From NCBI GenBank assembly GCA_016211085.1, contig JACQSY010000128.1:1863-65862 (forward strand): a stretch of 64,000 bases of DNA, given 5' to 3'. Below the pieces are notes generated by a model, which searched no databases, was not told where the DNA came from, and was given only the letters and a program-made list of their open reading frames with translations. Made by a program: the position numbers and the translations under genes. Origin of the DNA: Acidobacteriota bacterium. Lineage in GTDB: Bacteria; Acidobacteriota; UBA6911; RPQK01; JACQSY01. Of this stretch, positions 15,301 through 47,353 are shown in pieces; within the stretch, counting starts at the first letter, position 1, and each line of letters begins with the position of its first letter.

Positions 15301-15397
15301 TACGCCCTTGATGACGGAGTATGAGGCACAAATTCTGAGCCGGACGGGGGCCCAAACGCTTGAGCAAGCATTAGAGAAGATTCGGCAAAGTACCTAA
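12302..15397 (+). CDS. GHKL-type ATPase / DUF3883-like nuclease / ChaC-GGCT-like C-terminal domain fusion protein
   Basis: The Bergerat N-box is ELIQNAEDS (about 12446) and the G-box is GYLGIGFKSIF. GYDLEAE...MYIEVKG...FYVFVI (14426-14707) resembles the DUF3883 restriction-endonuclease fold. IGILAYGSLIDSPGPE...MLWRRE (14801-) resembles ChaC/gamma-glutamylcyclotransferase. Confidence 0.7.
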   Translation: MNVQQKSVIERLREEIERSKGSHIWTDYVNALNLVAQVVFTRSTGFILELIQNAEDSGRDDSGKELSYPGVFDISISPTRVKITHNGRPFSAADAKAISGIRSSKKPEKGTLGYLGIGFKSIFKVSDSPEVYSNGYQFKFDRNYWPESSGTPWQAMPIWIDEPSEAVEPGGTTFIIPFTKQTSASAVLEEVKELGTELYLFLRWLKKIQITDELSGKTWSLENLGESSDNIVTLRRDGQQQRFRFFRRTLTTVPDSVKSDRLTQEYRRNVTQREIAIAFALDGEGDLAPSEAGAMYGGVYSFLPLGEARSGAKFPIQADFLVQPGRDAINYEAPWNHWLTEEVASLCKEAIQAFKEHQRWKYQILPVFEFRKSIGLESYDRLFGPKLIEPLESFLKEDPCIPTHDGHWVKPGHAVRLVEDQRASDDLVTLCILSKDQIAQVLGRDSNLKLAHPAVQDSKSITIREVKRHDLLTNESFLEEMSKAPDAPGWFRSVYLWLQKHPIYREYRRRKEVIGYHEFPFILTAKKELLKGGTVWIPDLPPADPILNELAGSLQETRSVLHPEILGGGNEQEQRELRGFLTGLTGVQLLDRKTVCRDAILPRILTTAPKPARELLLKYTRYCQQILGAELGLEPELWVLTKSGEVEPATRVLFSFEYKPEQDWETNKKYVPGLSFLSPEYLSTLNDDAHLKTWRQFFKVGGLKTAPDNGVEDFAMNYAVECLRSHCRSVTRLEKRNFGYDLEAEKTDGQKMYIEVKGQTLDHDVELTGNETEAADKYKDEFYVFVISSIPENPSPYIIRNPAAPGVGKKDKLTIPTETWKSGRWKLDTRSRAKIGILAYGSLIDSPGPEISRVTVNRIKVETPFNVEFARSSQTRSGAPTLVPVSEGGARVNALILVLDDKVSEQDAINMLWRRESSNVGSSLSYRPQIEPTENSIIIENLKDFNGIETVLYTRISANINPRTPAQLAQLAIRSAQSEAGANGKDGITYLLAAKGAGILTPLMTEYEAQILSRTGAQTLEQALEKIRQST

Positions 15398-25868: not shown

Positions 25869-25907
25869 CTTACCCGCAAGCTCTGCAAATCGCCGCACTC
25901 CTTTAAG
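25869..25907 (+). promoter_or_regulatory. Box CTTACCCGCAAG, then N21, then TTTAAG, 27 nt upstream of the orc1/cdc6-like copy 3 ATG
   Basis: The box is at 25869-25880, TTTAAG at 25902-25907 and the ATG at 25934. Confidence 0.45.
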
Positions 25908-25933
25908 TGAGAACATCACGAATCAATTACAGG

Positions 25934-26968
25934 ATGAGCGCGGATAAAATCATCGTGAAGCCCGAGATTCTTTCTGAAGGCTTTGTGCCGGAAACGATTC
26001 ACGGGAGAAGCGAGCATCTGGCGCAGCTGAGAAACTGCCTGGCTCCGGCCCTCAAGGGAAGAAAGCCTCTACACGCCCTTCTGACCGGGCCGACAGGGTC
26101 AGGCAAGACCGCTGTCGGTAAAGCGGCATTGAGCATGCTCAGGGAAAGCAAGGTCCCGATCGCGTTCGTGAACTGCCGCCTGAACAACAGCTTCTACGCG
26201 ATTCTCGACCAGGTGGTCGCGCAACTCGGAATCCTTCGGGCAGAGAAAATCGACACCGGATTCAAAATCAAAGCTGTGGAGGAGTACCTGGAAGGAAGGC
26301 CCGCGGTCATCGTGCTCAACGAGATCGACACCCTCACGCCAAAGGAGCGGAACAGCGTGCTCTACAATCTAACGGGCATCGGCAATATCGGCCTGGTGTG
26401 CATTTGCGAGGACGCGCACTTTCTCCACTCCCTGGAAGAGGAGGCAAAGTCGAGGCTCTACCCAACCCACATCGAGTTTCAGCCATACGAGCACCAGGAC
26501 ATGGCGCAAATAATCCGGGACAGATGCACGGCAGCCCTGGCCGAAGGAGCAGTTGAGCAAAAGCACATCGATTTCATAGCCGCGCAGTCAGAAGGCAATA
26601 TTCGCATTGCATTGGAGATTCTGCGGAAGGCGGCTTCCTTTGCGGAGCAGGACGGGAAACAAAGGCTCAGCGTAAAGCACCTCAAGCTGGCTTCGCTCGC
26701 GGCAAACGGGAGCAAGCGCGACTATTTGCTCAGTCAGAACGAGCATTACCGGATAATTTACGAGATCGTCCAAAAAAACAGCCCTGAGGGCATCATGTCC
26801 GGCCACCTCTGGAAAGCGTACACTGATTTTTGTTACCAGGAGAGCAAGCAGCCTGTCGCCAACCGAACGTTTTTGCTCTACCTGAAAAAACTTCAGTATC
26901 TCTCCCTGGTCATGGCAGAGCGGGCGGGCATCCGTGGGAATGTGAGGAGGTGGAGGGTGAGGGAGTAG
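25934..26968 (+). CDS. Orc1/Cdc6-like AAA+ ATPase with C-terminal winged helix, copy 3 (Walker B Asp replaced by Asn)
   Basis: FVPETIHGRSEHLAQLRNCL, Walker A GPTGSGKTA, Walker B AVIVLNEID, tail RTFLLYLKKLQYLSLV...GNVRRW. It is closest to copy 2. Confidence 0.85.
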   Translation: MSADKIIVKPEILSEGFVPETIHGRSEHLAQLRNCLAPALKGRKPLHALLTGPTGSGKTAVGKAALSMLRESKVPIAFVNCRLNNSFYAILDQVVAQLGILRAEKIDTGFKIKAVEEYLEGRPAVIVLNEIDTLTPKERNSVLYNLTGIGNIGLVCICEDAHFLHSLEEEAKSRLYPTHIEFQPYEHQDMAQIIRDRCTAALAEGAVEQKHIDFIAAQSEGNIRIALEILRKAASFAEQDGKQRLSVKHLKLASLAANGSKRDYLLSQNEHYRIIYEIVQKNSPEGIMSGHLWKAYTDFCYQESKQPVANRTFLLYLKKLQYLSLVMAERAGIRGNVRRWRVRE

Positions 26969-27881: not shown

Positions 27882-28628
27882 ATGTTTTCCGGCGGGATTG
27901 GAAGCTGGGCAGCTGCGAAGCGAGTGGCCGAGCAACACGGCACGAAAGATCTGCTGTTACTCTTTGCGGACACCCAGATGGAGGACGAAGACCTCTATCG
28001 TTTCCTTCACGAGGCTGCTGCAAACATCGGCGGTGAGCTTGTAAAGATTGCTGACGGCAGAGATCCCTGGCAGGTGTTCATTAATTGCCGGTTTCTGGGC
28101 AACAGCCGCGTGGACCCGTGCTCCAGAATCCTGAAGAGAGAGCTGCTCCGGCGTTGGCTGGAGCAAAATTGCAAGCCCGAATCGACAACCGTATATCTGG
28201 GAATCGACTGGACTGAAATCCATAGATTCGAGAGGGCGAAGCGTTACTGGCATCCCTGGAAGGTGGCGGTGCCGCTCTGCGAAAAGCCGTACCTTTCAAA
28301 GCCGGACATGTTTCAGCTTTTGGAAAGGGCAGGAATCGAGCCGCCCCGCCTCTACAAGATGGGCTTTCCTCACAACAACTGCGGGGGATTCTGCGTGAAG
28401 GCAGGCCAGGCGCAATTCCGGTTGCTACTGGAAAAGATGCCGGAGCGCTATCACTACCACGAAGCCAGAGAGCAGGAATTGCGCCGCCATCTCCGGAAAA
28501 ATGTGGCCATTCTCAAGGATAGGAGCGGCGGGAAGACGACGCCGTTGACACTGCGGGAATTCCGTGGCCGGGTAAAAGCAGGCCTGAACACCGGCAACGA
28601 TTGGGGAGGCTGCGGCTGTTTTCTGTGA
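27882..28628 (+). CDS. PAPS reductase-like PP-loop ATPase family protein
   Basis: The N-terminal PP-loop is MFSGGIGSWAAA and the Cys-rich C-terminus reads HNNCGGFCVKAG...GGCGCF. This is typical of the mobile-element PAPS-reductase/DndC-like group. Confidence 0.7.
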   Translation: MFSGGIGSWAAAKRVAEQHGTKDLLLLFADTQMEDEDLYRFLHEAAANIGGELVKIADGRDPWQVFINCRFLGNSRVDPCSRILKRELLRRWLEQNCKPESTTVYLGIDWTEIHRFERAKRYWHPWKVAVPLCEKPYLSKPDMFQLLERAGIEPPRLYKMGFPHNNCGGFCVKAGQAQFRLLLEKMPERYHYHEAREQELRRHLRKNVAILKDRSGGKTTPLTLREFRGRVKAGLNTGNDWGGCGCFL

Positions 28629-28681: not shown

Positions 28682-28849
28682 GTGGATGAGGTGGCGCAGG
28701 TAGTCAAGGAGCTCAACATTGAAGGGCTGAATATTTCCAAATTTTACGAGTTTGCGGTCGACAGAGTGCTTTCGGATTACAAGAATAACCCGCGGGAGTT
28801 TGAACACAATCTCCGCATTTATCTCGACCTGCGAGGAAAAACCGAGTGA
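28682..28849 (+). CDS. Possible small protein (below the track threshold)
   Basis: My own translation gives VDEVAQVVKELNIEGLNISKFYEFAVDRVLSDYKNNPREFEHNLRIYLDLRGKTE. It reads as protein-like, whereas the antisense 86-aa track ORF does not. The start is uncertain. Confidence 0.3.
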   Translation: MDEVAQVVKELNIEGLNISKFYEFAVDRVLSDYKNNPREFEHNLRIYLDLRGKTE

Positions 28850-28880
28850 AAATAGGCGACAGCATCGGGCAGCAGCGAAA

Positions 28881-29576
28881 ATGACCGACACTAAGAGATT
28901 TCATCCGGTAGCTCTTTTTGTTCTCCTTACACTTGCGGTCACTCTCTACGCCCTCGCCATCGAGCCCTTCTCCGGCAAATGCGTGGGCGTCCAGGATGGA
29001 GACACGATTGAGGTCATGCGCTCTGCGCGGGCAGTCAGGGTCAGGTTGGATGGCATTGACTGTCCTGAGGCTGGTCAGGATTTCGGCTCCCGAGCCAAAC
29101 AGTTTACCTCCTCGATGGCTTTCGGCAAGCAGGTCACGGTGATGCCCAAAGAGTATGACAGGTACGGCAGGATCGTGGCTCGTGTGCTGGCGGACGGAAA
29201 AGATATCTCATTTGAGCTTGTTAAAGCCGGCCTTGCCTGGCACTACAAGCAGTATTCATCAGATCCGGAGCTGGCGGAAGCCGAGACGATGGCCAGAGCC
29301 CAGCAAATCGGTATCTGGTCGATGCCGAACCCCATTTCGCCACGGGCATATCGACGCGGGGAAAGGGGAGGACGAGTGGCGGCTCCAAGCGCCTCACCTC
29401 CACAGATGATCGCTGCAGTTTTTCACGGCAACGTGAGGAGCCGCGTCCTCCATGCGCCAACCTGTCGATATTACGACTGTAAGAATTGCACGGCTGTTTT
29501 CACATCCGTAGAGCAAGCAATCAAGGCCGGATACCGCGTTCACCGGGAGTGCATACATAATGCAGGAGTGGAGTAA
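28881..29576 (+). CDS. Staphylococcal-nuclease (SNase/thermonuclease)-like nuclease with N-terminal membrane anchor and C-terminal Cys/His motif
   Basis: VQDGDTIEV...VRLDGIDCPE...YGRIVARV...ELVKAGLAWHY...IGIWS carries the SNase signature residues. The C-terminus reads HAPTCRYYDCKNC...GYRVHREC. Confidence 0.8.
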   Translation: MTDTKRFHPVALFVLLTLAVTLYALAIEPFSGKCVGVQDGDTIEVMRSARAVRVRLDGIDCPEAGQDFGSRAKQFTSSMAFGKQVTVMPKEYDRYGRIVARVLADGKDISFELVKAGLAWHYKQYSSDPELAEAETMARAQQIGIWSMPNPISPRAYRRGERGGRVAAPSASPPQMIAAVFHGNVRSRVLHAPTCRYYDCKNCTAVFTSVEQAIKAGYRVHRECIHNAGVE

Positions 29577-29959: not shown

Positions 29960-31342
29960 TCATGCGCCCGGAGGTAGTAGTACCTGTTCCAAGATTTTGC
30001 AGTTCACCTCAGAGCCGCCGGAGTTTTCCCGTATCCAGTCGATCTGGTTAAAGCCCTTCAGCGTATCCTGTGGGTACCACTGGGCCCGACGAGGCTGCAG
30101 CTTGAGCCATCCCTTTACAGCAAATCGCTGCACCACAGGGTCAAGCATTTCCAAACCGTTCGATCCACGTTTCCCCTGTTCCTCGGATAAGACAGCCTGC
30201 ATTATGGCCCCGAGCAGGAGTGCGCGCGTCATCTGGATGTCTTTTGCCTGCACAGATTCAGGACTTCCATCGAAATTAATGGGGAATCCACCCCGGAGGA
30301 TTCTCAGATAACCACGGGGAAGTTCATAAGAAACGTCGTCCAAAGCGTTGGGTGCCGGCAGACTTTGCCACAGTCTGTTGAAAGACCTCAGCAGCGAGAG
30401 AAACTCGCTATCCTCTGAGGAACAACTTATAAAGGTCTTGCAGCCCTCCACCTTCTCCAGCCATTTTGCAAGCCACAGAATATCTTTCCCTGTGCAGCCG
30501 AAGATATAATCCGCTTGCTTGAAAACATCTTGGATGTCCTCACACCAGTTAACATCGGGAGCACATCCGACGGCGGAGGGGTCACTGTCATGGGCAAAGA
30601 CCCCATACCCTCTACTTCGGAGTTCCCGTGCTACCGCTCGTCCGATGTTACCTAGGCCTATTACGCCGCACTTCCCCATTTTGCCATTCCGTGGAATCGC
30701 CAATCCGATCTTATCTATTACGGTTTTGCCGATCATCGGAGGCTCGATTTTCTTTTTAGCTGCCGAGCTTGCTACCTGTATGACCGGCAGCCTGAATGGC
30801 AATTGTTGAAGTCCGCTTGTTGTCTGTTCGATGCCGACAACTGTGTAATTCTTCAGCACCCACCTCGGAACCCCAGCTAGGCAGTGTCCGCCGTCGTCAA
30901 GCACCACTATGGTCTTGAATCCGGCTTCTGATGCTCTTTCCTGAAGCATTTTCCACATCTTTGCAATATCCCTCTTCAGGACATCGCCAAAGCCGCCCCA
31001 CCCTCTTGGCACCGTATCTTCTTGAACTTGAACCCCTAAGTTGCGCAGTTTGCGCTTGACCTCCTGGTTGGTAGAGTAGAATTTTCCGAGCAAGTAGATG
31101 TTTTGCGGCCGCGCGCCGAGCCGGATCAAAGTCCTGAACAGACTTCCGGTAGTTTCGAGCAAGTGCTGCACGCAAACAAACGCCACGTCCCCTATTCGCA
31201 CGTGTGCCATAGGAAACAGCTGCTGGTACATCTCTTCTAGAATTGGAAGTGTCGGAAAAGTGTTCTGGATTTCCGCATCCACGCGTGCCACCATCTGAAA
31301 AGCTCTATAAATATAAGAGTAACGAAAACTATTTAGCCTCAA
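29960..31342 (-). CDS. Adenosylhomocysteinase (AHCY)-fold, NAD-binding protein, divergent
   Basis: VQHLLETTGSLFRTLIRLGARPQNIYLLGKFYSTNQEV resembles AHCY ...TAVLIETL.ALGAEV...STQD. VVLDDGGH resembles ILDDGGD. GIEQTTSG resembles GxSEETTTG. The Rossmann motif is GVIGLGNIGRAVARELRSRGYGVFAHDSDP. Confidence 0.65.
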   Translation of the reverse strand: MRLNSFRYSYIYRAFQMVARVDAEIQNTFPTLPILEEMYQQLFPMAHVRIGDVAFVCVQHLLETTGSLFRTLIRLGARPQNIYLLGKFYSTNQEVKRKLRNLGVQVQEDTVPRGWGGFGDVLKRDIAKMWKMLQERASEAGFKTIVVLDDGGHCLAGVPRWVLKNYTVVGIEQTTSGLQQLPFRLPVIQVASSAAKKKIEPPMIGKTVIDKIGLAIPRNGKMGKCGVIGLGNIGRAVARELRSRGYGVFAHDSDPSAVGCAPDVNWCEDIQDVFKQADYIFGCTGKDILWLAKWLEKVEGCKTFISCSSEDSEFLSLLRSFNRLWQSLPAPNALDDVSYELPRGYLRILRGGFPINFDGSPESVQAKDIQMTRALLLGAIMQAVLSEEQGKRGSNGLEMLDPVVQRFAVKGWLKLQPRRAQWYPQDTLKGFNQIDWIRENSGGSEVNCKILEQVLLPPGA

Positions 31343-31473
31343 CCCGCCTGCAAAGCAGTGCGTTGTCCCCAGACTCGGATGACATACACGAAACGATGAT
31401 CCGGCTTCCTGATTTGGATACGTTGCAATGTTGAGATCCCTTGGACGATCATGACCACGTTCGTTATCGTCGT

Positions 31474-32802
31474 CTATTTTCGAGTAAGTTTGATCAAGGC
31501 ATGATAGAACTCAACGTCCAATGAGATCTTGCTATCTTTTGGAGCCCAGTCCTTTGTAGGGATCTCGCTCACATCCTTAAGGAGTCCAGACTCACCGGAA
31601 TAGGCAGTTCGGTCATCTCTTGTTTGCCGGAGTCGGGGGCTGCTCTTCTCGCCCTTCCTTGCTAACGACCGGCAGAAGAATTCAGTCCTGCCTAAATCTA
31701 TGTACTGATCTCCCGCCGCAAACTTCTTAAGATCTAAAGCAATCTCGTCGAGGAACAACTTCCAGCTTCTAGCCTTGGGGGGAATATACGCTAAAACAGA
31801 TGGACGACGTAAGGAATAAAAGCCGGTCATGCCAGAATCGGTCAAATGACAAGGCTGGAATATCACGGGGAAAAATCTGCCGATTCTGTTACTGACGATA
31901 AGTTCTTGGAATTGACTGAACGGTCCGGCAGGTTGTTTCGTTTTGACGACCGGTTGAAAAGCCGGTACATCACCTCTGGTGATTTGAAAGAGGTGCTTAA
32001 TTGTCTCGTAGTAGAAAACGGCCTCAACAGGAAGCCACTTTAATTTTGGTTTGTTGGCATGCTCAGAGTCGTAGACAGTGGCTTCGTGGGTGAAAGGACG
32101 GGCCTGCAAGCTGAATATCCTGCGTAGATAGTTGTCCATCTCACTGAACCCAGGCCGGCTTCCCATATACCATTCACCCGGGAATATCAAGACACAAGCA
32201 GCCCAATCCAACGTCCCTACTTGAGCCGCAAACTTGATTAATTCCCAGTTATCCTTCTCAAGCTTATCCCACTCCTCACGGCTTATTTGCTGGCACACGG
32301 CCTTCTCGAACTGATTCCTTAGTTTCGAGTCTTTGGTAGGCATTCCTATTACAACCGATCTCGCCCCTGAAGATATACTCCAAGGATACGCGATTGTCTG
32401 CTTGTCCAGTCTATCGACTGCTTCAAAGACTCCAAAGATTTCACCTTGGCTGAGCAAACGACGGGGAGACGGGAGATTTGGGTGCCCCCGCTTTACGAAA
32501 ACCTCCACGCAGTTTTGGAGAACTAAGGTCAAGGGGATTAAGCGATCGTTTAGAGAGGCCTCGAGTTCTTTACAAGAGTCACATCGGTCTGTCTTCTCGG
32601 CGGCGCATGGGGACAAAAATTTGCCTCTGTCTGCCAAAAGCTGACCGTAAGAATAAGTTGCGCGAAAAAGAAATAGATTCTTTGCAGATGAGCCTAGCGA
32701 GGCTGCGACCTTATCAGCGGCACCAGCAAAGTGTGAGTTTACTTTGCTTACGTCTTTGGCCACTTCCTCCCATCGGACTTTGGAAACGTGCTCACCCCTC
32801 AT
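31474..32802 (-). CDS. Unknown 442-aa protein, co-operonic with the ECF module and the AHCY-like gene
   Basis: It is a long clean ORF in the same orientation, starting 16 nt after the ATPase gene. I recognised no motif. Confidence 0.6.
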   Translation of the reverse strand: MRGEHVSKVRWEEVAKDVSKVNSHFAGAADKVAASLGSSAKNLFLFRATYSYGQLLADRGKFLSPCAAEKTDRCDSCKELEASLNDRLIPLTLVLQNCVEVFVKRGHPNLPSPRRLLSQGEIFGVFEAVDRLDKQTIAYPWSISSGARSVVIGMPTKDSKLRNQFEKAVCQQISREEWDKLEKDNWELIKFAAQVGTLDWAACVLIFPGEWYMGSRPGFSEMDNYLRRIFSLQARPFTHEATVYDSEHANKPKLKWLPVEAVFYYETIKHLFQITRGDVPAFQPVVKTKQPAGPFSQFQELIVSNRIGRFFPVIFQPCHLTDSGMTGFYSLRRPSVLAYIPPKARSWKLFLDEIALDLKKFAAGDQYIDLGRTEFFCRSLARKGEKSSPRLRQTRDDRTAYSGESGLLKDVSEIPTKDWAPKDSKISLDVEFYHALIKLTRK

Positions 32803-32817
32803 TGCCCGCCTCCTTTG

Positions 32818-34110
32818 TCACTGGCTTAAGAGGCCGTCTTCCAAACGGATGATCTTAGCGGGAAACCTCTGATGCAGCCATGTTGAGTGAGAAATCGCAA
32901 TGACTCCGGTCCCTGAATCGACAAGCTGGGTAATAATGCGGGCGATTGCTTCAGCCGAAGCGTTGTCTTGCCCGAGCATTGGCTCGTCAAGGATTAGCCA
33001 GGGTCGTCCCATTGCCACTGTAGCGGCAAGCGCCACACGTTTTCGAATCACGAACGGCAGGTCGAGAGGGTGCTCGGAGCTAATGTGAGAAATGCCGAAG
33101 GCAGCCATTACACTCCGGCAGCGTGCAACGCATTCCTGCCCTCTCAGTCCGAGGGCAACTGGCCCAGCTTTGACTTCTTGCTCAACCGATGTTGAGAATA
33201 ACTGAAGGTCGGGATTTTGAAAATGGTACCCAACCACCTGACCAGGCTGTTTCCATGGATGTGATTGGTTACCATTGGCAAGAATCAGTCCAGAGTCTGG
33301 CCTAAGTGCTCCGCAGAGCAGCTTTGCAAGGGTGCTTTTCCCCGCCCCGTTGCGGCCTTCCAAAAAATAAAGGGTACCCGGTTCGAGGTCGGCTGCAACG
33401 TTGCGAAGAACTGTCGGACCTTGTGGATAACGGAAGGACAGCGAATCAAGTCTAAGGCAGTAAGGGGAGAAGTGCTGAATCCCTAGGTCTACACTAGAGT
33501 CGATCGGGTCAAATCGTAGTCGCCGCTTGGGAAACCTCTGATTGTTCACTGACAGCTTTGTGCGGCTATCGGATTTCGCCCATTCCCTCAGCCGGTTATC
33601 GGCAATCAAAGTTGACGTTTTGGAAAACCGGTCATCACCTAAATAATCTAGCAGTTTCATTTTCAATGAGGGCGCAATTTGCTCCAACGCGCAGTCAATA
33701 GCCAGAATAAACGGCTTGATCGATAGAGCACACGTTATTGCCAGGCACGCTTGTTCTCCTCCAGAAAGAGTGAACGGATTACGCCCGAAGAGTGGGCTGA
33801 TTCCAAGACTATCGATCACCTCTGCCAAAGGTGAATATTTCAGTTCCTCAACCAGGTGGAGTTGCAGCTCATGCCGCACCGTTGGAGCTAGTCCCGAGAT
33901 CGAGTTGTAAAGCTCCGGCCCAACATAAGCCAACCGAGGCACTGCGGCCCATGCTTGTGGCCTAGCTTGACCCTGGTTCACCAAACCGGTCAACTCACGG
34001 AGCAGCTCTGTTCGGCCGCTGAAATTGTTGCCCTCCAGGACAGCCACTCGAGATGACTCCAGATTTCCTAGCCACTCGCCTGTCAACCCTTCCCGTTTTT
34101 CAGCGGTCAT
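32818..34110 (-). CDS. Tandem-domain ABC ATPase of ECF type (EcfA-A' fusion) with one degenerate site
   Basis: Domain 1 has a degenerate Walker A (GNNFSGRTELL), signature LSGGEQ and LAIDCALEQ. Domain 2 has Walker A GRNGAGKST and Walker B WLILDEP, with the signature replaced by LPFVIRKR. Confidence 0.75.
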   Translation of the reverse strand: MTAEKREGLTGEWLGNLESSRVAVLEGNNFSGRTELLRELTGLVNQGQARPQAWAAVPRLAYVGPELYNSISGLAPTVRHELQLHLVEELKYSPLAEVIDSLGISPLFGRNPFTLSGGEQACLAITCALSIKPFILAIDCALEQIAPSLKMKLLDYLGDDRFSKTSTLIADNRLREWAKSDSRTKLSVNNQRFPKRRLRFDPIDSSVDLGIQHFSPYCLRLDSLSFRYPQGPTVLRNVAADLEPGTLYFLEGRNGAGKSTLAKLLCGALRPDSGLILANGNQSHPWKQPGQVVGYHFQNPDLQLFSTSVEQEVKAGPVALGLRGQECVARCRSVMAAFGISHISSEHPLDLPFVIRKRVALAATVAMGRPWLILDEPMLGQDNASAEAIARIITQLVDSGTGVIAISHSTWLHQRFPAKIIRLEDGLLSQ

Positions 34111-34877
34111 CCACTAACCCTCGTGGCGATGTTATAAACGAGCCAACTGAACGCAAGAAACACGAAAAAAGCACTGCCGGTGCTTGACCCGGCGCAGGGT
34201 TCAACTGGAAGAGTCTGAAGACGGGCGAGCAAGCCACGCTGGTGCCAAATCTCGGACCGCTGAATCGCAGACCGAAGCACCCATGCCAGCAGGGGGCGCA
34301 ACAGGAAGGGCAGTTGGCGAAGGCGGTTCGAAAAAGACCGATTTGGCACGAGGCCCCTCGCGTACCTGGCCGTGAGAACCTGGTCAGAACGAAGCCTCAG
34401 TTCTGGGCCGAGTGCGAGGGTACCCGCCACAATCACAAGACCTTCTCCTCTCAAACCCCAACACCTGACAGTAGCTATGAGCTGCTCTGGTGAGATGGTG
34501 AGAAAGCAGAGTTGGATCACTCCTCCGAGTACCGTTAATCGAAGCGCAACCATGCACCCAAAGCTCAGGCCTTCTTCTGGACTACTCCCGACCGGCATTC
34601 CTGGTGGCGCCGCCACCATCCAGCCCCAGACTAGCAATAGAGCAGCCGTCACAGGTCCGAGGAATACCGTGACAAACTTCATGTGCTGTCGCGCAATTCC
34701 ACCAGCGATTGTCAGAGGGAGGAGAATACCTAACCACGCCAACAGAAGCAGGTGTAGGTCGTTCGAAATCAGCGTCCCTACAATTGCCGCCGCCGCCGCC
34801 GCGCCGCGGGCACGGGGACTTGGTTCATACCGTCTCATTTGCACCCCGGAGAAAACCATTTCGAAAGAGGGCTTCAT
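34107..34877 (-). CDS. ECF transporter T component (EcfT/CbiQ-like)
   Basis: It is a polytopic membrane protein with the coupling-helix motif VLTARYARGL. The stop overlaps the ATPase start (ATGA). The start is uncertain (34877, 34859 or 34838). Confidence 0.6.
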   Translation of the reverse strand: MKPSFEMVFSGVQMRRYEPSPRARGAAAAAAIVGTLISNDLHLLLLAWLGILLPLTIAGGIARQHMKFVTVFLGPVTAALLLVWGWMVAAPPGMPVGSSPEEGLSFGCMVALRLTVLGGVIQLCFLTISPEQLIATVRCWGLRGEGLVIVAGTLALGPELRLRSDQVLTARYARGLVPNRSFSNRLRQLPFLLRPLLAWVLRSAIQRSEIWHQRGLLARLQTLPVEPCAGSSTGSAFFVFLAFSWLVYNIATRVSG

Positions 34878-35463
34878 TATGGAATCGGTCTAACAGCGTC
34901 TGGGGAATTCCGCGGAGCAGCCACACTGCCAGCAAGCATTGAATAGTCTTGTCTAAGGGTTCAGCCGCCAAGCCGGATAACACGACGGATTGGAGGACAC
35001 TCTTGCCGCTCGCAAGTAGAAAGGCCACGATGAGAGAAGCACCACTTCCTGTTATGCCTGCAAAGAGCGCCGTGATAACCGGAGCGCTGACAACTCCGGC
35101 AACAATCCCCAAACCGACTCCCGTTACTATGACAAGTTTATATGTTCGAAACGCCCCTTTTTTTGCAGCAAAGTAAGTGTAAATGGCGATAGCAGCCTGA
35201 GTACCTGAGAACCAAGGAAGGACGGGATTTACGAAAATTCCCCCGACTATGAAACTAACAACCCCGACTATGATCCCCGCCCGCATCCCAGCCAGTAAAG
35301 TGACCAGGATAGTGCCTACTGCGTCAACATAAATTGGAGCCTTGATCGTGTGCACCAAGGTGCCAAGGGAGAGATTGAGCGCAATCCCTAGAGGCAAGAG
35401 TGCAAGAACTAGCTGAGGATTTGTGGGACTGTGGGTTTCGTTACTGCGCGTTAGATTTTCCAT
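34825..35463 (-). CDS. ECF S-component-like substrate-capture membrane protein
   Basis: 212 aa with about 6 hydrophobic helices, first gene of the operon. A strong GGAGGTG lies 7 nt upstream of the ATG at 35463. Confidence 0.55.
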   Translation of the reverse strand: MENLTRSNETHSPTNPQLVLALLPLGIALNLSLGTLVHTIKAPIYVDAVGTILVTLLAGMRAGIIVGVVSFIVGGIFVNPVLPWFSGTQAAIAIYTYFAAKKGAFRTYKLVIVTGVGLGIVAGVVSAPVITALFAGITGSGASLIVAFLLASGKSVLQSVVLSGLAAEPLDKTIQCLLAVWLLRGIPQTLLDRFHNEALFRNGFLRGANETV

Positions 35464-36841
35464 TACCTTACACCTCCGTCGGTCTTTTTCGGTTTTTTCT
35501 CTAGAAATTTTACTGGACAGTTTGAAACAAGGCGATTCGGACTTTTGGCTGCAAAAAATGTGGTCAAAAAAACAAACGAATATTTTGCAAGTGAAATCAA
35601 AAGCAAGGGATTGCCCTCTTTAAATTACGCAGACATTTTTGCTCCTTTTCTGGGATCTCAGTATGAGACCGACTCGTACGTCCAAAAGTCACTCTTGCCA
35701 TCCCCAGTGACCCCTCTAAAATCGCCACCATGGAACATCATCCCTCTCCATCGGTCAGAGAGGCTGTGCAGCAAAGGAGGAGCGCGGAGGCAACCACGGC
35801 CCAGAGATGTTACGGTTGCCACAAACCAAAGACGAATTCAGACCAAAACTTCTACCTTTGCAGCGGCCATCTTTCCGTCCAGCTTTCTCAGGTGCAGGCG
35901 GTGAAACTGGATCGCCAGGGGACGAATCTCGGCAACCACGAGATCGCTGCCGCGGACAACGGGCCGTGCCAAGTCATCGAGAACGGAATCTGCCAGTTCC
36001 CGCAGAGTGTGCCAACGCTCGTTAGCTTCGTGAACGAAAAGCGGAACCATGGCGCGGCCATCTTTTATGTGAGGCGTGCTGCTGGAGAATAACAGAAGAG
36101 GGCGGGGTTTAATTTAAGGGTATCAACCTTTGGGCTCAGTCAAGGTGCGGCGGACCGGGCCGGGGTAACGAAATCGTCGGCTTCCCAGGTGCAGGGGGCG
36201 GGAAGGAATTAAAAATATTGTTGACCCGACGATCACAAGAAAAACTGCCGGCCATGACTGATTTCCGCCGTTTACACGGGGGGCTAAACCCACCGAAGAG
36301 AGCACAAGAAAGATGGAGGACAACGCCATACGCTCAATGTGGCTCGATGACCTCTGGAAGCGAATTCGCGCGGATTTCGGTCTGACGCCACTGCCGGAGC
36401 ATGCCCTTGTAACCTGTGGCTTTCCCTCTCGGGGGGCGCGTGGAGATTCGCCGGGCCGCAGGCCGGCAGAGATACTGAGAGAGGAGTGGAAGCGAAATGA
36501 CGGTTATGAAAGAAAAAACGTTCGTCCAAGCTGAAAACCCAACATCCCACGGCAGAAATCTGAACCCTAGATCAGCTGCACCGAACCCACCAGCTTCTCC
36601 TAATGAGGAGGGAGCTACGTGGGAGGAAGGGTACCGCGACGCGGTGCGCCGCTTATTCGAACTTTGTTTACAGGAGCAGTGACGAAATGGGAACGTGAGA
36701 AAAGATGGCCCACCGCCAGCCCCGAGATCGCGCCCCGGCCAGGAGCAACGAAATCGCAGACCAGTGATGGGCTTTTCTATTTATACGCCATGCTTCGGAC
36801 CCATGCAATCCGTCAACCAATGTAATCAGGAGAAAAATCTT

Positions 36842-42538: not shown

Positions 42539-42673
42539 ATGAACACGAGTCTTGAGGATGAAGTGGTGCGGCTGCTGGTCGAAAAATTCCTGGCTGAAAA
42601 GCGTGCGCGGAACCTTAGCAGGAAGAAATCGAAGACGTATAATGTCTCCTCCAATAGGAGGCCCAGACCATGA
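42539..42673 (+). CDS. Possible small basic protein translationally coupled to the recombinase
   Basis: MNTSLEDEVVRLLVEKFLAEKRARNLSRKK... Its stop overlaps the recombinase ATG (ATGA at 42670-42673). The start is uncertain (the track gives 42428). Confidence 0.3.
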   Translation: MNTSLEDEVVRLLVEKFLAEKRARNLSRKKSKTYNVSSNRRPRP

Positions 42674-44565
42674 AACCTGCCATCGCTTTTGCGAGGAAGT
42701 CGAGCACGGATCGCCAACAACAGTCCATCGAGAGCCAGTTGCGCGATATCCGGGAGTACGCAAGAAAAAATCACTATGAAATCGTCCGCGTCATTGCCCT
42801 CGAGGAAACAGGATACTCCGCCGGGGAGTCGCGGCGGTTCAGGCGAGAGTTTGAGCAGTCCAAGGAGCTGCTATTCTCTCTTGCGGGACAGTACGGCAGC
42901 CTGGTTGCCATTTTTTGGTCCGTCGACCGCTTGGGGCGTATCGATCCTGACGAAGGCGCACACTTCATCTGGGAATGCAAACAACGCAGAATCCAAGTGA
43001 AGTTTGTCATTGACCCTGAAGCCAGCGAGGAAGGCATCACAGGCAATTTTTTTCGCACAATAAAGTTCGATTCAAGTCGGCAGTTCTCAGAGACGCTGGC
43101 GACATCAGTCAAGCGCGGCAAGACAAGGACCATGGAGAAGGGCGAGGAAAGACATATCTGCTTCTCCCCAGGCGGGCGCGACCCGTTTGGGTTCAGGCGC
43201 AGCCTGTGCGATGAGAATGGAAAATTCATAGACATCGGAGGAGACGAAGTTGCGGAGCCTGTCGTTCTCAAGAGAAAGTTCTGGAACGTAAATCCGCATC
43301 TCAAATCCCGTTACGTCGTGTTCCCACCAGAAGCAGACGTTGTGAAACGGGTTTTCGCGCTGGCATCAGAAGGGAAAGGGGCATTGCGCATTGCCGGCCT
43401 GCTCAATCGCGATCTCGATGAGGCTGAGAAACTAGAAAAGCAGAACACGCTCGAAGGCAACAGTGAGCTAAACGCTCCCAAAAAGCACCATCCATCCGTC
43501 GCTCCCCCTGTCGCCAAATGTTGGTCGAAGAGGTCGGTTCGGCATGTTCTCCAGAACAGGATGTACACTGGGCAATTCATGTTCAATAGGCGAACAGTGG
43601 GGAAAACTTTCAAGAACATGGACCCCAAGAAAGTGCCGGAGTACAAGGTCGTCACGGTTTACGACCCGTCTCTTGCCATAATTCCCAGGGACGTCTTTGA
43701 GCGGGTGCAGGCACTGGCCGCCTCGAAGAGGACTTCATCCGGGGCCTCCATCGCTGGCCGCCCGAGTTCCTATCCCTTTTCCAAGAAAATAATCTGCGCT
43801 GTTTGTGGTGGGTTTTACGTGGGCCGCCGCTATGCAAACGGTCCTGTTTACGTGTGTTCTGGCAAGCGCTATCTGGGGATATGCAATTCTAGAAATGATC
43901 TCGATGGCAACAGCCTGATGGAGGTTTTCACGACGCTCACAAACGATCTCCTGAAGCACATGAAAACTCCTGCAAGCCTGAAGCGAGTTGTGGACGGCAT
44001 CAACGCGGAACTTCAGACGGCAATGCCTGAACTGTCGATTCTTGATAAGCGGATTGTCGATCAAAGCCGGAAGCTTGAAAGGCTCTTTCAGGGCGAAATG
44101 ACGCCGGAATTGGAAAAATTGTTCGAGGCGGAAAAGGTGAGCTTGGTGGAGTTGGAAAAGCGGCGCGAGAGGCTTTTTCAGATGAATGCCCTAGCTGGTT
44201 CACGACATGTCGAGGTGGATGAAGTAGCGGCATTTCTTGATACGGTCGAGTTAGACGAAGGCGACACGTCGCGGCTTCTCGACCGGATGCTTCACTCCAT
44301 CACGGTAAAGGATTCCGAAGCCGTCATCAATCTGTATGCGGCACCGTCGCGGGCGGTTATTGATGGCGTTGTTGCGCACGCAGAAATAGCCTCCGCTGTC
44401 TCGGTCGGAGAAGAGGTGAAATTGTCCGCAACATCAGGATGTTGTGACCACCCGCCGTTGCCACTTCCAAAGCGCGCTTGGCGCCGGCCTGGCCTTTTAC
44501 ATCCGCAAAATTTGGAAGCCCCTGAACCTGGCCTCTCAGCAACTCCTCGCGATCCACTTTTGTAG
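42670..44565 (+). CDS. Large serine recombinase (integrase)
   Basis: The resolvase-type N-terminus is AIAFARKSSTDRQQQSIESQLRDIREYA (catalytic Ser region). A recombinase domain and the zinc ribbon CAVCGG...VCSGK follow, then a coiled-coil region. The last ~45 codons (after about 44430) are antisense to comM. Confidence 0.85.
   Translation: MKPAIAFARKSSTDRQQQSIESQLRDIREYARKNHYEIVRVIALEETGYSAGESRRFRREFEQSKELLFSLAGQYGSLVAIFWSVDRLGRIDPDEGAHFIWECKQRRIQVKFVIDPEASEEGITGNFFRTIKFDSSRQFSETLATSVKRGKTRTMEKGEERHICFSPGGRDPFGFRRSLCDENGKFIDIGGDEVAEPVVLKRKFWNVNPHLKSRYVVFPPEADVVKRVFALASEGKGALRIAGLLNRDLDEAEKLEKQNTLEGNSELNAPKKHHPSVAPPVAKCWSKRSVRHVLQNRMYTGQFMFNRRTVGKTFKNMDPKKVPEYKVVTVYDPSLAIIPRDVFERVQALAASKRTSSGASIAGRPSSYPFSKKIICAVCGGFYVGRRYANGPVYVCSGKRYLGICNSRNDLDGNSLMEVFTTLTNDLLKHMKTPASLKRVVDGINAELQTAMPELSILDKRIVDQSRKLERLFQGEMTPELEKLFEAEKVSLVELEKRRERLFQMNALAGSRHVEVDEVAAFLDTVELDEGDTSRLLDRMLHSITVKDSEAVINLYAAPSRAVIDGVVAHAEIASAVSVGEEVKLSATSGCCDHPPLPLPKRAWRRPGLLHPQNLEAPEPGLSATPRDPLL
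44429..44444. repeat. Perfect inverted repeat CAACATC-AG-GATGTTG at the island/comM junction (candidate attR core)
   Basis: Read directly. It coincides with the last comM-like codons (NILML). Confidence 0.5.
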
Positions 44566-45097
44566 GCGTGTACTGCTCACATCCCCCGTTCAGCAGCTGA
44601 AGCACCTGGGGCAGCGTGACCGCCGGGTAAACATCGACGCCATCCACCACCGCTGCTTCCAGGGCATTGTCGGAAGGAAGCAGCAGGCGCCGGAAATTTT
44701 TTTTCTCCGCATTTAAAGCCACCGGCAGGGCGCCTCGAATCGGCCTTACACGCCCGTCGAGCGAAAGCTCTCCCAAAACCAGCCAATCCCGAACTGCCTG
44801 AGGCTGCAAATCTCCGCCCAGGCCAAGGATTGCCAGCGCAATCGGCAAGTCGTAACAACTCCCCTCCTTTTTTAGGTCGGCAGGCGCCAGGTTAACGGTC
44901 AAATGACACGTTTCCGGAAATTGATAGCCGCAATTGCGAATCGCTGCCCGCACCCGTTCTCCACTTTCTTTTATTGCCGGGTCGGGCAGCCCGACGACGT
45001 TATATTTGGGTCCGTGGCGGATCGAAATATCTACCTCGATATCAATGATTTGGGCCTGAATGCCCAGTACTGACGCACTGTGTATTTTCAGTAGCAA
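44429..45097 (-). pseudogene. comM: comM (YifB/Mg-chelatase-like competence protein), N-terminal ~223 codons, truncated by the island
   Basis: The Lon-protease-like N-domain is MLLKIHSASVLGIQAQIIDIEVDI...YDLPIALAIL. The ORF then reads ...VKGQAGAKRALEVATAGGHNILML, where the Walker A GPPGxGKT should follow. Instead it continues 23 unrelated codons into island DNA. Confidence 0.8.
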
Positions 45098-45287
45098 GTT
45101 ACCTCCCTGTGGAAGTACGGCGACAAAAGTTGGAAACGAATTCGAGACTTGGCGCGTACCTTTATCGATTCAGCCGCTTCGTCGTCTTTGCCTTCCCATA
45201 ACGACCAAGCAAGCAAAAGCGTGAACCGATGGAAAACGGGCTCAGGGCAGAGACAGGCGGCTAAAAGGACGAAGAGATTGATGTAAT

Positions 45288-46394
45288 ATGAAGGGCGTGA
45301 ATGACTCCCGCTTTCTGAGAGCGTGCCGGCGAGAACCCGTCGACTGTACGCCGGTCTGGTTTATGCGCCAGGCAGGTCGTTACATGGAGGAGTATCGTCG
45401 CGTTCGCGAACGGTATTCACTTCTCGAGATTTGCCGAACCCCTGAATTGGCTGCCAGGGTGACGCTTCAGCCGATTCGGAGGCTCGACCTGGATGCCGCG
45501 ATCATCTTTGCAGACATCCTGCTCCCTCTGCAAAGCATGGGAATTGATTTTGATTTTTCCAAGGGGGAAGGACCCGTCATTCACAACACGCTGCGCACGC
45601 CTAACGATATCCGGAATCTCGAGGTGCCGCACCCTGAAGAGGGCCCGGTAAGTGTTTTTGAGGCCATCCGGCTGGTTCGGCGAGAACTGGATTCCAAGAT
45701 TCCGTTGATCGGATTTGCGGGAGCTCCTTTTACGGTGGCCAGCTATTTAATCGAGGGCGGCTATTCGCGCCGCTTCGTTAATACCAAAATGATCATGTAC
45801 TACCATCCTGAATCGTGGCACGATCTCATGAAGAAACTCACGACGATGACGATTCAGTACCTTCAAGGTCAGGTAAAGGCTGGCGCCCAGGCGGTCCAGT
45901 TGTTCGACAGCTGGATTGGATGCCTTTGTCCGGCCGACTATACAAGTTTCGTACTTCCTTACTCCAAGAGCATTTTCGAGCGGCTGCGGCCGCTTGGCAT
46001 CCCTACAATCCATTTCGGCACCGGCACCGCAGCCTTGCTGGAATTAATGAGACGGGCGGGCAGCGATATAGTTGGAGTAGATTGGCGTATTGGATTGAAA
46101 GAGGCGTGGAGACGGCTGGGGGGCAAAGTCGGAATTCAAGGAAATCTTGATCCGGTCGCAATGCTCGGACCACGCGACAAACTCAAAGAAAAGGTCGAGC
46201 AAGTCCTGGAGCAGGCTGAAGGGAAAGTGGGTCACATTTTCAATCTTGGCCATGGAATTCTTCCTGAGACTCCGGTCGAAAATGTGGAAGCGGTGATTGA
46301 GTGGGTCAAGCAGAAAAGCAAGAGGACGCATTCCGTCAAAAGCAGGGCCGCCAAGGCCGTCTCAGCGGTTGGAGCCAGAAGGAAGAAAAGATAA
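45288..46394 (+). CDS. hemE: Uroporphyrinogen decarboxylase
   Basis: FLRACRREPVDCTPVWFMRQAGRYMEEYR and the rest of the protein are typical of HemE. Confidence 0.9.
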   Translation: MKGVNDSRFLRACRREPVDCTPVWFMRQAGRYMEEYRRVRERYSLLEICRTPELAARVTLQPIRRLDLDAAIIFADILLPLQSMGIDFDFSKGEGPVIHNTLRTPNDIRNLEVPHPEEGPVSVFEAIRLVRRELDSKIPLIGFAGAPFTVASYLIEGGYSRRFVNTKMIMYYHPESWHDLMKKLTTMTIQYLQGQVKAGAQAVQLFDSWIGCLCPADYTSFVLPYSKSIFERLRPLGIPTIHFGTGTAALLELMRRAGSDIVGVDWRIGLKEAWRRLGGKVGIQGNLDPVAMLGPRDKLKEKVEQVLEQAEGKVGHIFNLGHGILPETPVENVEAVIEWVKQKSKRTHSVKSRAAKAVSAVGARRKKR

Positions 46395-46405
46395 GCTGGC
46401 GGAGC

Positions 46406-47353
46406 GTGAAAAAAGAAAAGATAGCCGTGTTGCTGATGGCTTACGGCGGCCCTGGTTCACTGGACGAGGTCGAGCCGTACGTCCTGGATGTACGCGGTGG
46501 AAAAACATTGCCTGCCGCCGCCCTCACTGAGATCAAGAATCGCTACTCGAGCATTGGCGGAAAGTCTCCGCTTCTAGAAATCACCAGCGCACAGGCGCGA
46601 AGTCTTCAACGAGAATTGCTCAGACGGGGCCTGCCGAATCGCACTTTTGTGGGGATGCGCCACTGGCACCCGCGAATCACTGAAGCAGTGGCTGAGATGA
46701 GAAAAGAAAAATTCAAGAAAGTCGTAGCCCTTTGTCTGACGCCGCAGTACTCCGCGCTCAGCGTGGGAGCTTATTTTGAACAATACCGGGTTGCCTTAAA
46801 AGAACATTCTGCACAGTGGGAGACTATTTACGTGAACAGCTGGCACACACAACCTCAGCTGGTAGAGGCTTACGCCTCAAAGCTCAAAACTGCTTTAAAC
46901 ACGTTTCCGGCGGATGCGCGATCTCAGGTGATGGTGGTTTTCACGGCCCATAGTCTTCCTGAGAAAATCCTTCAGTTAAATGATCCCTATGACATCCAAG
47001 TCAAGACAACATCAGCAGAGGTTGCTCGCAAGCTGGCGCTCCCCTGCTGGGTGTTTGCTTATCAGAGCCAAGGTTACGGGAACGGAAAATGGCTGGGTCC
47101 TTCAGTGGAAGAGATCCTGCAAGCACTCGCAAAAGGCGGGACCCGGAATGTGGTTATAGCACCGGTTGGATTTGTTTCCGACCACGTCGAGATTTTGTAC
47201 GATGTGGATATTGCTTTCAAACGGCTGGCCGCCTCACTGGGTATCAGGCTGGAGAGACCCGGTTCGCTGAATACAACACCTTTATTCATCCGCTCCATGG
47301 CGACAACCATCAAGGAACACTTAGAAGAATCCTCCGTGTGTCTCGGGGCGTAA
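46406..47353 (+). CDS. hemH: Ferrochelatase
   Basis: VKKEKIAVLLMAYGGPGSLDEVEPYV..., FTAHSLPE and QSQG motifs. I prefer the GTG at 46406 over the track start 46301, which overlaps hemE. Confidence 0.85.
   Translation: MKKEKIAVLLMAYGGPGSLDEVEPYVLDVRGGKTLPAAALTEIKNRYSSIGGKSPLLEITSAQARSLQRELLRRGLPNRTFVGMRHWHPRITEAVAEMRKEKFKKVVALCLTPQYSALSVGAYFEQYRVALKEHSAQWETIYVNSWHTQPQLVEAYASKLKTALNTFPADARSQVMVVFTAHSLPEKILQLNDPYDIQVKTTSAEVARKLALPCWVFAYQSQGYGNGKWLGPSVEEILQALAKGGTRNVVIAPVGFVSDHVEILYDVDIAFKRLAASLGIRLERPGSLNTTPLFIRSMATTIKEHLEESSVCLGA

Follow-up and report, generated by a model that had tools for sequence, protein, structure and literature searches.

Five adjacent genes on the minus strand of an Acidobacteriota contig encode a predicted energy-coupling factor (ECF) transporter together with two proteins, U and H, of large unannotated families. 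They lie in a 64,000-nucleotide stretch of contig JACQSY010000128.1 (positions 1,863 to 65,862), which we call the window and whose coordinates are used except where another locus (L number) is named. The transporter comprises a substrate-capture component (S), a coupling component (T) and a fused tandem ATP-binding cassette (ABC) ATPase (A-A'). H belongs to a distinct family that has the whole two-domain fold of adenosylhomocysteinase (AHCY) and is not an adenosylhomocysteinase. The gene order S-T-AA'-U-H is present in at least eight phyla. The transporter class is known; the composition of the cassette, namely a CD3073-like S, an asymmetric fused ATPase, a partner with a cyclic nucleotide (cNMP)-binding-like domain and an AHCY-fold enzyme, is apparently undescribed. 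We put at about an even chance the reading that the transporter is a dedicated importer for a nucleoside-like compound, which a complex of U and H would then transform by AHCY-style chemistry with nicotinamide adenine dinucleotide (NAD). The features of the locus are as follows.

34825..35463, minus strand: S, 212 amino acids, predicted ECF substrate-capture component of the CD3073-like superfamily
34107..34877, minus strand: T, 256 amino acids, EcfT/CbiQ-like coupling component; its true start may be Met14 at 34838
32818..34110, minus strand: A-A', 430 amino acids, fused tandem ECF-type ABC ATPase
31474..32802, minus strand: U, 442 amino acids, predicted cytoplasmic, unannotated family, predicted partner of H
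29960..31294, minus strand: H, 444 amino acids from the ATG at 31294, or 460 if the open reading frame (ORF) is taken to the TTG at 31342; AHCY-fold, NAD-binding
35464..35840, minus strand: 5' leader and promoter region, with the Shine-Dalgarno sequence GGAGGTG at 35477-35471, read directly from the sequence

All five reading frames named in an initial annotation of this DNA are present in the ORF listing, as is the strong Shine-Dalgarno sequence that it placed before S, which lies 7 nt upstream of the ATG at 35463. The annotation had also pointed to stop/start overlaps and short gaps between the genes. This description fits the first four: S overlaps T, T shares 4 nt (ATGA) with A, and A and U are separated by 15 nt. 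The gap between U and H is larger than was implied, being 131 nt if H starts at the TTG and 179 nt if it starts at the ATG at 31294; a terminator-like hairpin was looked for on its minus strand and none was found. We consider this ATG the more likely start of H, because the homologues begin near residue 28 of the ORF. The public gene calls on the contig are N-terminally short compared with both the ORFs and the homologues (389 residues for H and 289 for U). They cut conserved N-terminal regions, so that the H motif VQHLLETTGSL and the cNMP-binding-like domain of U would be hidden.

The same order, S-T-AA'-U-H, was found with unrelated flanks on three metagenome contigs and then on two more, and its distribution was surveyed from both ends of the cassette. 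The first survey started from H, with one genome per species and ORFs classified by iterated hidden Markov models (HMMs). It gave 80 loci, comprising 11 complete cassettes, one truncated by a contig end, 24 with U and H and no ECF genes, and 44 with H alone. The complete cassettes and the truncated one came from Verrucomicrobiota, several Pseudomonadota, a cyanobacterium, Bacteroidota (Dyadobacter), Nitrospirota, Desulfobulbia and Acidobacteriota. The second survey started from metagenome loci found with an S profile, 24 of which were distinct and had at least 4.4 kb downstream. S-T-A-U-H was found in 12 of these, S-T-A followed by a single U-H fusion ORF in four, and S-T-A-H in two; one locus had U in convergent orientation and five had neither U nor H. 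U and/or H stood directly after S-T-A in 19 of the 24 loci. Such recurrence of the gene order in many unrelated contigs indicates that the arrangement is not due to chance.

The five genes are therefore co-conserved, whether the survey starts from H or from S, but the notion of a five-gene unit has to be refined. U is adjacent to H in every locus where U was found. The two are a single ORF in at least six lineages (loci L067, L107, L119, L134, L135 and the contig-truncated L114, with L056 in a different topology), and in these fusions the U part covers roughly the first 325 profile positions. Because U-H fusions exist, U is predicted to be a physical partner of H. In a neighbour-joining tree of H, the ECF-linked cassettes fall into two deep clades with U-only loci interspersed, and a Legionellales clade without U appears derived. 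Thus, the conserved core is the U-H pair, which in part of the family has the ECF module as a frequent and ancient companion. In some loci a sixth gene directly follows or overlaps H. It encodes a DUF2332 protein in L102 (6589-7704), L119 (6745-7854), L134 (13327-14466) and L135 (7065-8150), and an MTS-type S-adenosylmethionine (SAM)-dependent methyltransferase in L160 (12801-13487), L164 (4336-5085) and L166 (3948-4697); the window cassette has neither. Three further loci lack U-H and encode S and T in a single ORF (L120:4948-9638, L140:7962-11628 and L144:7977-10616). In L120 and L140, S-T-A is followed by a 2-oxoglutarate-Fe(II) oxygenase (DIOX_N + 2OG-FeII_Oxy), and L120 also has a Gfo/Idh/MocA oxidoreductase. 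We count these other small-molecule oxidoreductases, standing after S-T-A where U-H is missing, as support for the import reading.

The transporter is, on its sequence, of the ECF type, with S, T and two CbiO/EcfA-type ATPase domains in one same-strand cluster, and the identification made in the initial annotation holds for each component. S matches the NCBIfam model NF045596 (ECF_S_CD3073) with E 8.5e-30 over profile positions 2-172 of 174. Because the score is below the equivalog cutoff, S is best assigned to the same superfamily and not to the same family. Its family profile found a sole match in the PDB, FolT, at E 0.02, and profile searches show that S is not CbiM/N-like. The protein has about six hydrophobic segments, and its alignment with ECF S components annotated in haloarchaea, Salmonella, Paracoccus and Enterococcus runs from end to end. 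S is also the most conserved gene of the cassette, with a mean column identity of 58% and invariant N30, K41, D47, T51, T88, Q89, E168, D171 and K172. Across phyla, identity to the window protein is 43-71% for S, 23-50% for T and 12-34% for U, the fastest-evolving component.

As a single sequence, T gives a weak CbiQ match (E 0.005), and a profile of 15 cassette T proteins matches the EcfT structures 5d3m_D, 4hzu_T and 4huq_T over their full length (E 2.9e-5 to 5e-5). The coupling motif ARxARG (A170-R171-x-A173-x-G175) is invariant, as are R207 and W211, while E209 is nearly so; the protein has four to five hydrophobic segments. In A-A', two ABC_tran stretches are arranged in tandem. The C-terminal half matches the cbiO and ECF_ATPase HMMs (TIGR01166 cbiO, 1.7e-44; ECF_ATPase_1/2, about 1e-37 to 1e-40) and has canonical GRNGAGKST, LILDEP and SHS motifs with a degenerate signature, LPFVIRK (LPFVxRK in the family). 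The N-terminal half has a canonical LSGGEQ signature, a Walker A motif with Arg in place of Lys (GNNFSGRT; GxNFSGRT in the family), a Walker B motif without the catalytic Glu (ILAIDCA) and no H-loop His. This asymmetric pattern is common to 15 cassette homologues. ABC dimers have a head-to-tail geometry, and together with it the asymmetry of the motifs would produce one competent and one degenerate ATP site.

The module resembles the dedicated (group I) ECF systems, such as CbiMNQO, BioMNY, YkoEDC and the queuosine-precursor systems, in its S with about six transmembrane (TM) segments, its EcfT-like T with Arg coupling helices, its two ABC domains and an operon shared with putative cargo-handling genes. 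Nevertheless, there are three differences. The first is that S belongs to the uncharacterised CD3073-like superfamily, outside the families of known substrate. The second is the fusion of the two ATPase domains and the conservation of one degenerate site. The third lies in the partners: U and H are unannotated families, and no link between them and ECF transporters was found in the searchable literature.

H retains the AHCY fold over its whole length. In single-sequence searches AHCY and AHCYL proteins rank first, and the best PDB sequence matches are AHCYL1 and AHCYL2, which are catalytically inactive. A profile of 34 H sequences matches AHCY/AHCYL structures over both domains (E 1.1e-16 to 1e-9), whereas D-2-hydroxyacid dehydrogenases match the Rossmann part alone, at about positions 197-287 (E>=1.7e-5), and other Rossmann proteins are likewise confined to the NAD domain; residues 224-281 match PF02826 at 28 bits. 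The AlphaFold (AF2) model has a pLDDT of 92, and the 50 best Foldseek matches in the PDB are without exception AHCY structures, with query-normalised TM-scores of 0.52-0.71, most of them about 0.7, over 404-477 aligned columns at 15-21% identity. The initial annotation had left room for a better alignment to the D-2-hydroxyacid dehydrogenases; this was not found, and we rejected that identity, since the homology is limited to the NAD domain while AHCY matches both domains. The motifs on which the AHCY assignment had been based (HLLETTGSLFRTLIRLGA, YSTNQ, VLDDGGH, GIEQTTSG and GLGNIGRAVA...HDSDP) were all found and are invariant or near-invariant columns in the 34-member family alignment.

For comparison of individual residues, H was mapped to human AHCY by hmmalign and hhalign, with a human sequence whose check covered length and residue positions only. 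H keeps AHCY His55, Asp131, Lys186, Asn346 and the GxGxxG...D NAD motif, all of them invariant in the family. In contrast, Glu156 is replaced by an invariant Gln, Asp190 by an invariant Glu, Asn191 by Pro, and both His301 and His353 by Ser. In the C-terminal third, the family-specific invariant motifs SCSSEDxEF, GGFPxNFD and IQxTR replace the AHCY tail, and K71, N340, D342, Q354 and R357 are further invariant polar residues specific to the family. H scores 26.2 bits against TIGR00936 (cutoff 497.6) and 17.1 against Pfam AdoHcyase_NAD (cutoff 27). H as a true AHCY was ruled out by the TIGR00936 score, the missing Glu156, His301 and His353, and the missing C-terminal tail. The initial view of H as an AHCY-like enzyme is thus sustained for the fold, the three retained catalytic-site residues and the NAD motif, and fails for Glu156, His301, His353 and the tail. 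S-adenosylhomocysteine (SAH) as the substrate is not indicated by these features, and the remodelled pocket argues against it.

Relative to AHCY (TIGR00936, EC 3.13.2.1) and the inactive AHCYL1/2 (IRBIT), H shares the fold over the whole length, the GxGxxG...D, DDGG and ExTTxG motifs and His55/Asp131/Lys186/Asn346, and differs in its family-specific C-terminal region and its dedicated partner U. The H family has at least 412 database proteins at E<=0.001. The closest homologues are 45-52% identical, among them proteins of Acidobacteriota and Verrucomicrobiota metagenome-assembled genomes, and homologues carry the public labels 'S-adenosylhomocysteine hydrolase', 'D-isomer specific 2-hydroxyacid dehydrogenase' and 'NAD(P)-dependent oxidoreductase'. 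Neither H nor U has TM segments.

U had been taken for an orphan, and as a single sequence it has no match in Pfam, NCBIfam, PADLOC or the PDB. Word-indexed homology searches found five proteins, even with a 34-sequence profile; an exhaustive HMM search found at least 1132 clusters at 50% identity (E<=1e-3), so that the description as an orphan no longer applies. The AF2 model (pLDDT 90) combines an N-terminal cNMP-binding-like beta-barrel, at about residues 45-155, with a C-terminal part of alpha/beta structure. Of the 50 fold matches listed from the PDB, every one carries a cNMP-binding or CRP/FNR-type sensory domain (CRP/CAP, Clr, GlxR, FNR, PKA, PKG, GORK and Bd1971 among them). Their E-values are 2.5e-4 to 6e-3, with probabilities of 0.85-1.0 and TM-scores up to 0.67 against isolated cyclic nucleotide-binding (CNB) domains, a moderate significance. 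Three weaker, independent signals agree with such a fold. The U family profile matches the cNMP domain of Bd1971 at E 0.25, which is near threshold and stands alongside a chance DnaJ match at 0.18; a phage Crp-like protein is the sole BFVD fold match under E 0.1; and PF00027 is the only Pfam family recurring among 70 U members, weakly and in 4 of the 70 (best E 0.004).

Like the CNB domains of CAP/CRP effectors and PKA/PKG, the U model has an eight-stranded barrel with a helix at the position of the phosphate-binding cassette, and U keeps a Gly-Glu...Arg-Ser pattern at the position of the ribose-phosphate site. This pattern is part of its best-conserved motif, GE(L/I)FGVFE...W-x-V-x-A-G-A-R-S, which resembles a phosphate-binding cassette with Glu and Arg. 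Unlike the CNB proteins, U has no significant PF00027 match and no kinase, channel or TM output domain; for the window protein, a Pfam search gave no PF00027 match and detected no helix-turn-helix (HTH) domain. It also differs from them in having about 280 extra residues of alpha/beta structure, for which no fold match was found, and in standing always beside or fused to an AHCY-fold protein. The near-invariant residues are mostly Gly, Pro, Trp and Phe, together with E100, E127, R148 and S330, and no catalytic constellation was found among the conserved residues.

Clues to the cargo come from relatives of S. When plasmid and chromid records were searched with S by tblastn, relatives were found that have 31-35% identity in the local matches and 29-34% end to end, share invariant N30, P43, D47, G50, T51, D171 and K172, and all stand in ECF contexts; the search also returned an E. 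coli record that carries no annotation (H12). Two 'nucleoside hydrolase' genes and an oxidoreductase gene bracket S-T-A in Haladaptatus pallidirubidus, H. halobius and Halomarina, and two 'nucleoside 2-deoxyribosyltransferase' genes are close to another S gene of Haladaptatus. The CD3073-family S gene of Enterococcus gilvus comes immediately after the gene for a 'CD3072 family TudS-related putative desulfidase', within a selenium-metabolism cluster. These neighbours point to nucleosides or nucleobases as the likely substrate class of the CD3073-like S superfamily, which would fit the nucleoside-binding fold of H. The far better conservation of S than of U likewise fits a fixed small-molecule ligand. 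Hence, the earlier suggestion of a nucleoside or SAH-like compound gains independent support for its nucleoside part from the hydrolase, deoxyribosyltransferase and TudS-related neighbours, and none for SAH itself.

The cassette S proteins and their CD3073-family relatives are alike in their end-to-end alignment, shared core residues and ECF context. The cassette subfamily nevertheless has invariants of its own (T88-Q89, S70-F71 and E168-P169), and the partner enzymes differ, being U-H here and hydrolases or a desulfidase there, at an S identity of 29-34%. In Salmonella and Paracoccus the partner of the S relative is a PPC-domain protein: in Salmonella Senftenberg (L169, between epd and tkt) and on a Paracoccus yeei plasmid (L170), S-T-A-A' is preceded by a gene for a 'PPC domain-containing DNA-binding protein'. 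The S-T-A-A' of enterobacteria and Paracoccus is apparently an uncharacterised ECF transporter in well-studied organisms, and no experimental characterisation of CD3073-family S relatives was found in the literature.

Based on these observations, import and transformation could proceed as follows. S, as a member of the CD3073-like superfamily, would capture a polar nucleoside-type compound outside the cell, and T together with the fused A-A', with its one competent ATP site, would power uptake. In the cytoplasm the compound would be handled by the U-H complex. H, an AHCY-fold enzyme with tightly bound NAD that probably works in an AHCY-like manner, would transiently oxidise a ribose-like secondary hydroxyl, thereby activating a neighbouring carbon for elimination or addition, and then reduce the hydroxyl back. 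Its remodelled pocket would accept a substrate other than SAH. U may serve as a non-catalytic ligand-binding accessory subunit that delivers the ligand to H or regulates H, and in some lineages the methyltransferase-like sixth gene may extend the pathway. We infer the import direction, the nucleoside-like substrate, the redox-assisted chemistry and the role of U; transient oxidation by H is proposed by analogy, from the fold and the retained His55, Asp131, Lys186 and NAD motif.

Several observations weigh against this import reading. The nucleoside clue consists of RefSeq annotation labels on the neighbours of S proteins that are 29-34% identical. H does not have AHCY Glu156, His301 and His353; with its AHCY-type catalysis drawn by analogy, it may, like IRBIT/AHCYL, be a binder without catalytic activity. 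U evolves fast, shows no catalytic signature and resembles a receptor domain. The initial annotation raised the possibility of a riboswitch in the leader, and no riboswitch or metabolite-responsive regulator was found: Rfam at gathering score gave no match in the window, leader included, or in nine other cassette loci, and a permissive search of 35300-36300 gave chance-level lncRNA matches only (E>=1), a result that concerns known families and leaves room for an undescribed RNA. A search for a sigma-70-like promoter on the minus strand of 35464..35840 likewise gave no match. The cassette is patchy across phyla, and it is repeatedly found beside integrases, transposases, resolvases and defence-type genes, a setting typical of defence systems too; a scattered distribution of this kind on islands would suit accessory metabolism and defence alike. 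Finally, the H proteins of Legionellales, which have no transporter and stand with hybrid sensor kinases, suggest a signalling role for the H family.

These Legionellales proteins (Legionella, Coxiella, Rickettsiella and Aquirickettsiella; L011-L030, L036, L038, L046, L048 and others) have no U or ECF partner. They show conserved synteny with a hybrid PAS-HisKA-HATPase-receiver kinase, often with a divergent Methyltransf_23-like gene, and the H-kinase pairing also occurs on conjugative L. pneumophila plasmids (for example L088, NZ_CP015948.1, locus coordinates 4533-8224). The arrangement looks like a pair of signal enzyme and sensor. In another setting, a gene for a protein of about 390 residues stands immediately before distant H relatives of about 28% identity (L071:7725-10101, L074:7805-10149 and L080:7898-10158), with a HIT-like gene near these loci. 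This protein matches the Pycsar effector TM domain (PycTM) at its C-terminus and has the class III cyclase-like motifs FIDI...FGDGFLL at its N-terminus. We considered it as a U homologue and rejected it, since it has the appearance of a fusion between a class III cyclase-like domain and PycTM. The PycTM-linked distant H may represent a separate nucleotide-signalling system.

The surroundings of the cassette in the window are those of a mobile region. A large serine recombinase (42670-44565; Resolvase, Recombinase and Zn ribbon domains) adjoins hemE (URO-D) and a hemH-like gene (ferrochelatase, judged by eye) within 42670-47353 and probably forms the right-hand edge of the mobile region in which the cassette lies. 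To its left lie two N6/N4 DNA methylases (3651-5063 and 6798-8441), a 1063-residue ResIII/SNF2-like helicase (9099-12290) and a 1031-residue protein with sacsin-like and NOV_C (DUF3883) domains (12302-15397), and the block at 3651-15397 looks like a type III-like restriction or defence cluster. The same side also holds RadC and three paralogous Orc1/Cdc6-like AAA+ ATPases (778-1806, 2230-3258 and 25907-26968; AAA_16, Cdc6 lid and Cdc6_C winged helix), an unusual number for a bacterium. A membrane-anchored staphylococcal nuclease (SNase) homologue (28752-29576) follows a 248-residue ORF (27882-28628) whose start, MFSGGIGSW, is like that of a PP-loop (SGGxDS) ATP pyrophosphatase and which has no Pfam match at E<=0.01. 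The initial description of a mobile island rich in SAM-dependent methyltransferases is thus upheld by the serine recombinase and the two DNA methylases, and weakened by the location of the methylases at least 21 kb from the operon. No tRNA gene was found in the window, and a dip in AT skew at 47-50 kb proved to be simply a polytopic membrane transporter gene.

Elsewhere, cassettes are flanked by IS110/DDE transposases, tyrosine integrases, ThiF/E1-E2 genes with AAA proteins, or DUF4407. The neighbours of 37 cassettes include integrases, resolvases, E1-E2/ThiF and DUF4407, with matches to the PADLOC models PDC-S05, DpdJ, BrxH, Mokosh, pVip and DrmC. Among the pooled neighbour ORFs, DUF4407 matched three and the PDC-S05 models up to three, counts that apply to the pool as a whole. 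A gene pair encoding proteins of about 500 and 750 residues lies beside the cassette in L070 (11214-14893), L082 (11246-15252), L168 (8123-11049) and L085 (832-5236); in L085 it consists of DUF4407 and a Transgly/PBP-like protein. Against PADLOC-DB 2.0, S, T, U and H have no match at E<=0.1, and A-A' matches generic ABC ATPase models (mad3 and mad8) only. No H homologue was found in a phage collection and no S homologue in viral contigs.

Such neighbourhoods bring up a first alternative, a signalling or defence module, which we regard as unlikely, though as the main rival. H would make or destroy a nucleoside-derived signal, or sense a metabolite change upon infection; U would be the receptor; and the ECF module would be the output, through uptake or expulsion of the signal or of a toxic nucleoside, or through perturbation of the membrane. 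The properties of U suit this role, as its sole recognisable fold is that of a cyclic-nucleotide receptor domain with the Arg/Glu cassette-like motif kept and no catalytic residues, and it evolves faster than the other components. S, by comparison, is the most conserved gene, unlike typical defence components, and its relatives occur in ordinary nucleoside catabolic neighbourhoods. The type III-like restriction-modification genes, NOV_C, RadC, SNase and serine recombinase of the window island, like the integrases, resolvases and PADLOC-model matches around the 37 cassettes, favour defence, but residence in a defence island is guilt by association. S, T, U and H match no PADLOC model, no known effector domain (nuclease, TIR, SIR2 or pore former) is present, and the phage and viral collections hold no homologues. 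No defence effector is known to have the architecture of a full, highly conserved S-T-A importer. A place in signalling is further suggested by the company that H keeps in Legionellales, hybrid PAS kinases and a methyltransferase-like gene, also on conjugative L. pneumophila plasmids, and by the pairing of its distant relatives with a PycTM-domain protein.

A broader form of the signalling idea would cover the whole H family, and we hold it to be a rather speculative one. Here U-H would be the core of an unrecognised type of signalling by a nucleoside derivative that the AHCY-fold protein makes or converts, with lineage-specific receptors (U, the Legionellales PAS hybrid kinases or PycTM-type membrane proteins), and the island-borne ECF form would import or release the signal between cells.

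Two further alternatives seem to us improbable to a similar degree. In one, U-H is a regulatory sensor: H would be a pseudo-enzyme like AHCYL/IRBIT that binds NAD(H), a nucleoside or both and, with U, gates the ECF ATPase according to metabolic state. The replacement of AHCY Glu156, His301 and His353, the inactive AHCYL1/AHCYL2 as best PDB sequence matches, the receptor-type domain in U and the degenerate, potentially regulatory nucleotide site in A-A' would all be accounted for. Invariant His55, Asp131, Lys186, K71, N340, D342, Q354 and R357, on the other hand, argue for an active pocket. U-H and lone H are widespread without ECF genes, so their function is not solely transporter regulation, and the methyltransferase-like genes directly after H suggest a pathway.

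In the other, U-H, with the methyltransferase in some lineages, would make a modified nucleoside or nucleoside-like metabolite, and the ECF-like module would handle a precursor or the product, as part of a biosynthetic or export module. AHCY chemistry works in both directions and allows a nucleoside to be condensed with a nucleophile. The DUF2332 or MTS-type methyltransferase genes directly after H in the loci listed above are in keeping with biosynthesis, and so is the association of Legionellales H with a methyltransferase-like gene and sensor kinases, which recalls an autoinducer synthase and receptor pair. However, no other biosynthetic genes are conserved around the cassette, the window cassette has no adjacent methyltransferase, and ECF transporters are known as importers only. 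Least credible is the view that an ordinary ECF transporter for a vitamin or cobalt stands by accident beside a hypothetical gene and a standard SAH hydrolase or 2-hydroxyacid dehydrogenase. The public labels of H homologues and the matches of T and A to cobalt-type CbiQ/CbiO models might suggest as much, but the data contradict it: the gene order is conserved across phyla from both the H and the S side, U and H are fused in several lineages, H falls far under the AHCY cutoff with key residues missing while the 2-hydroxyacid dehydrogenases match its Rossmann domain alone, and S is not CbiM/N-like.

No paper and no Pfam, NCBIfam or PADLOC model was found for the five-gene combination, in agreement with the initial annotation, which knew of no described system of this composition; literature searches returned nothing relevant on CD3073, DUF2332, ECF transporters with AHCY-like proteins, or AHCY in an anti-phage context. 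ECF transporters are regarded as importers of vitamins and metals. In these cassettes, one ECF subfamily is tied across at least eight phyla to two large unannotated families, one of which is a remodelled form of the textbook enzyme AHCY. If H, U and the transporter form a signalling or defence module, they would represent a new type of nucleoside-based circuit on mobile islands, and if U-H signalling extends through the H family, it would be a communication or immunity circuit of mobile elements. For the import reading, which we favour, the cargo is the key. Once known, it would define what class of substrate the CD3073-like S superfamily takes, a superfamily with further members in Salmonella, E. 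coli, Enterococcus and haloarchaea, and would assign a function to thousands of genes labelled 'NAD(P)-dependent oxidoreductase' or 'hypothetical', including those on conjugative plasmids of L. pneumophila; it would probably also reveal a new NAD-assisted nucleoside chemistry.

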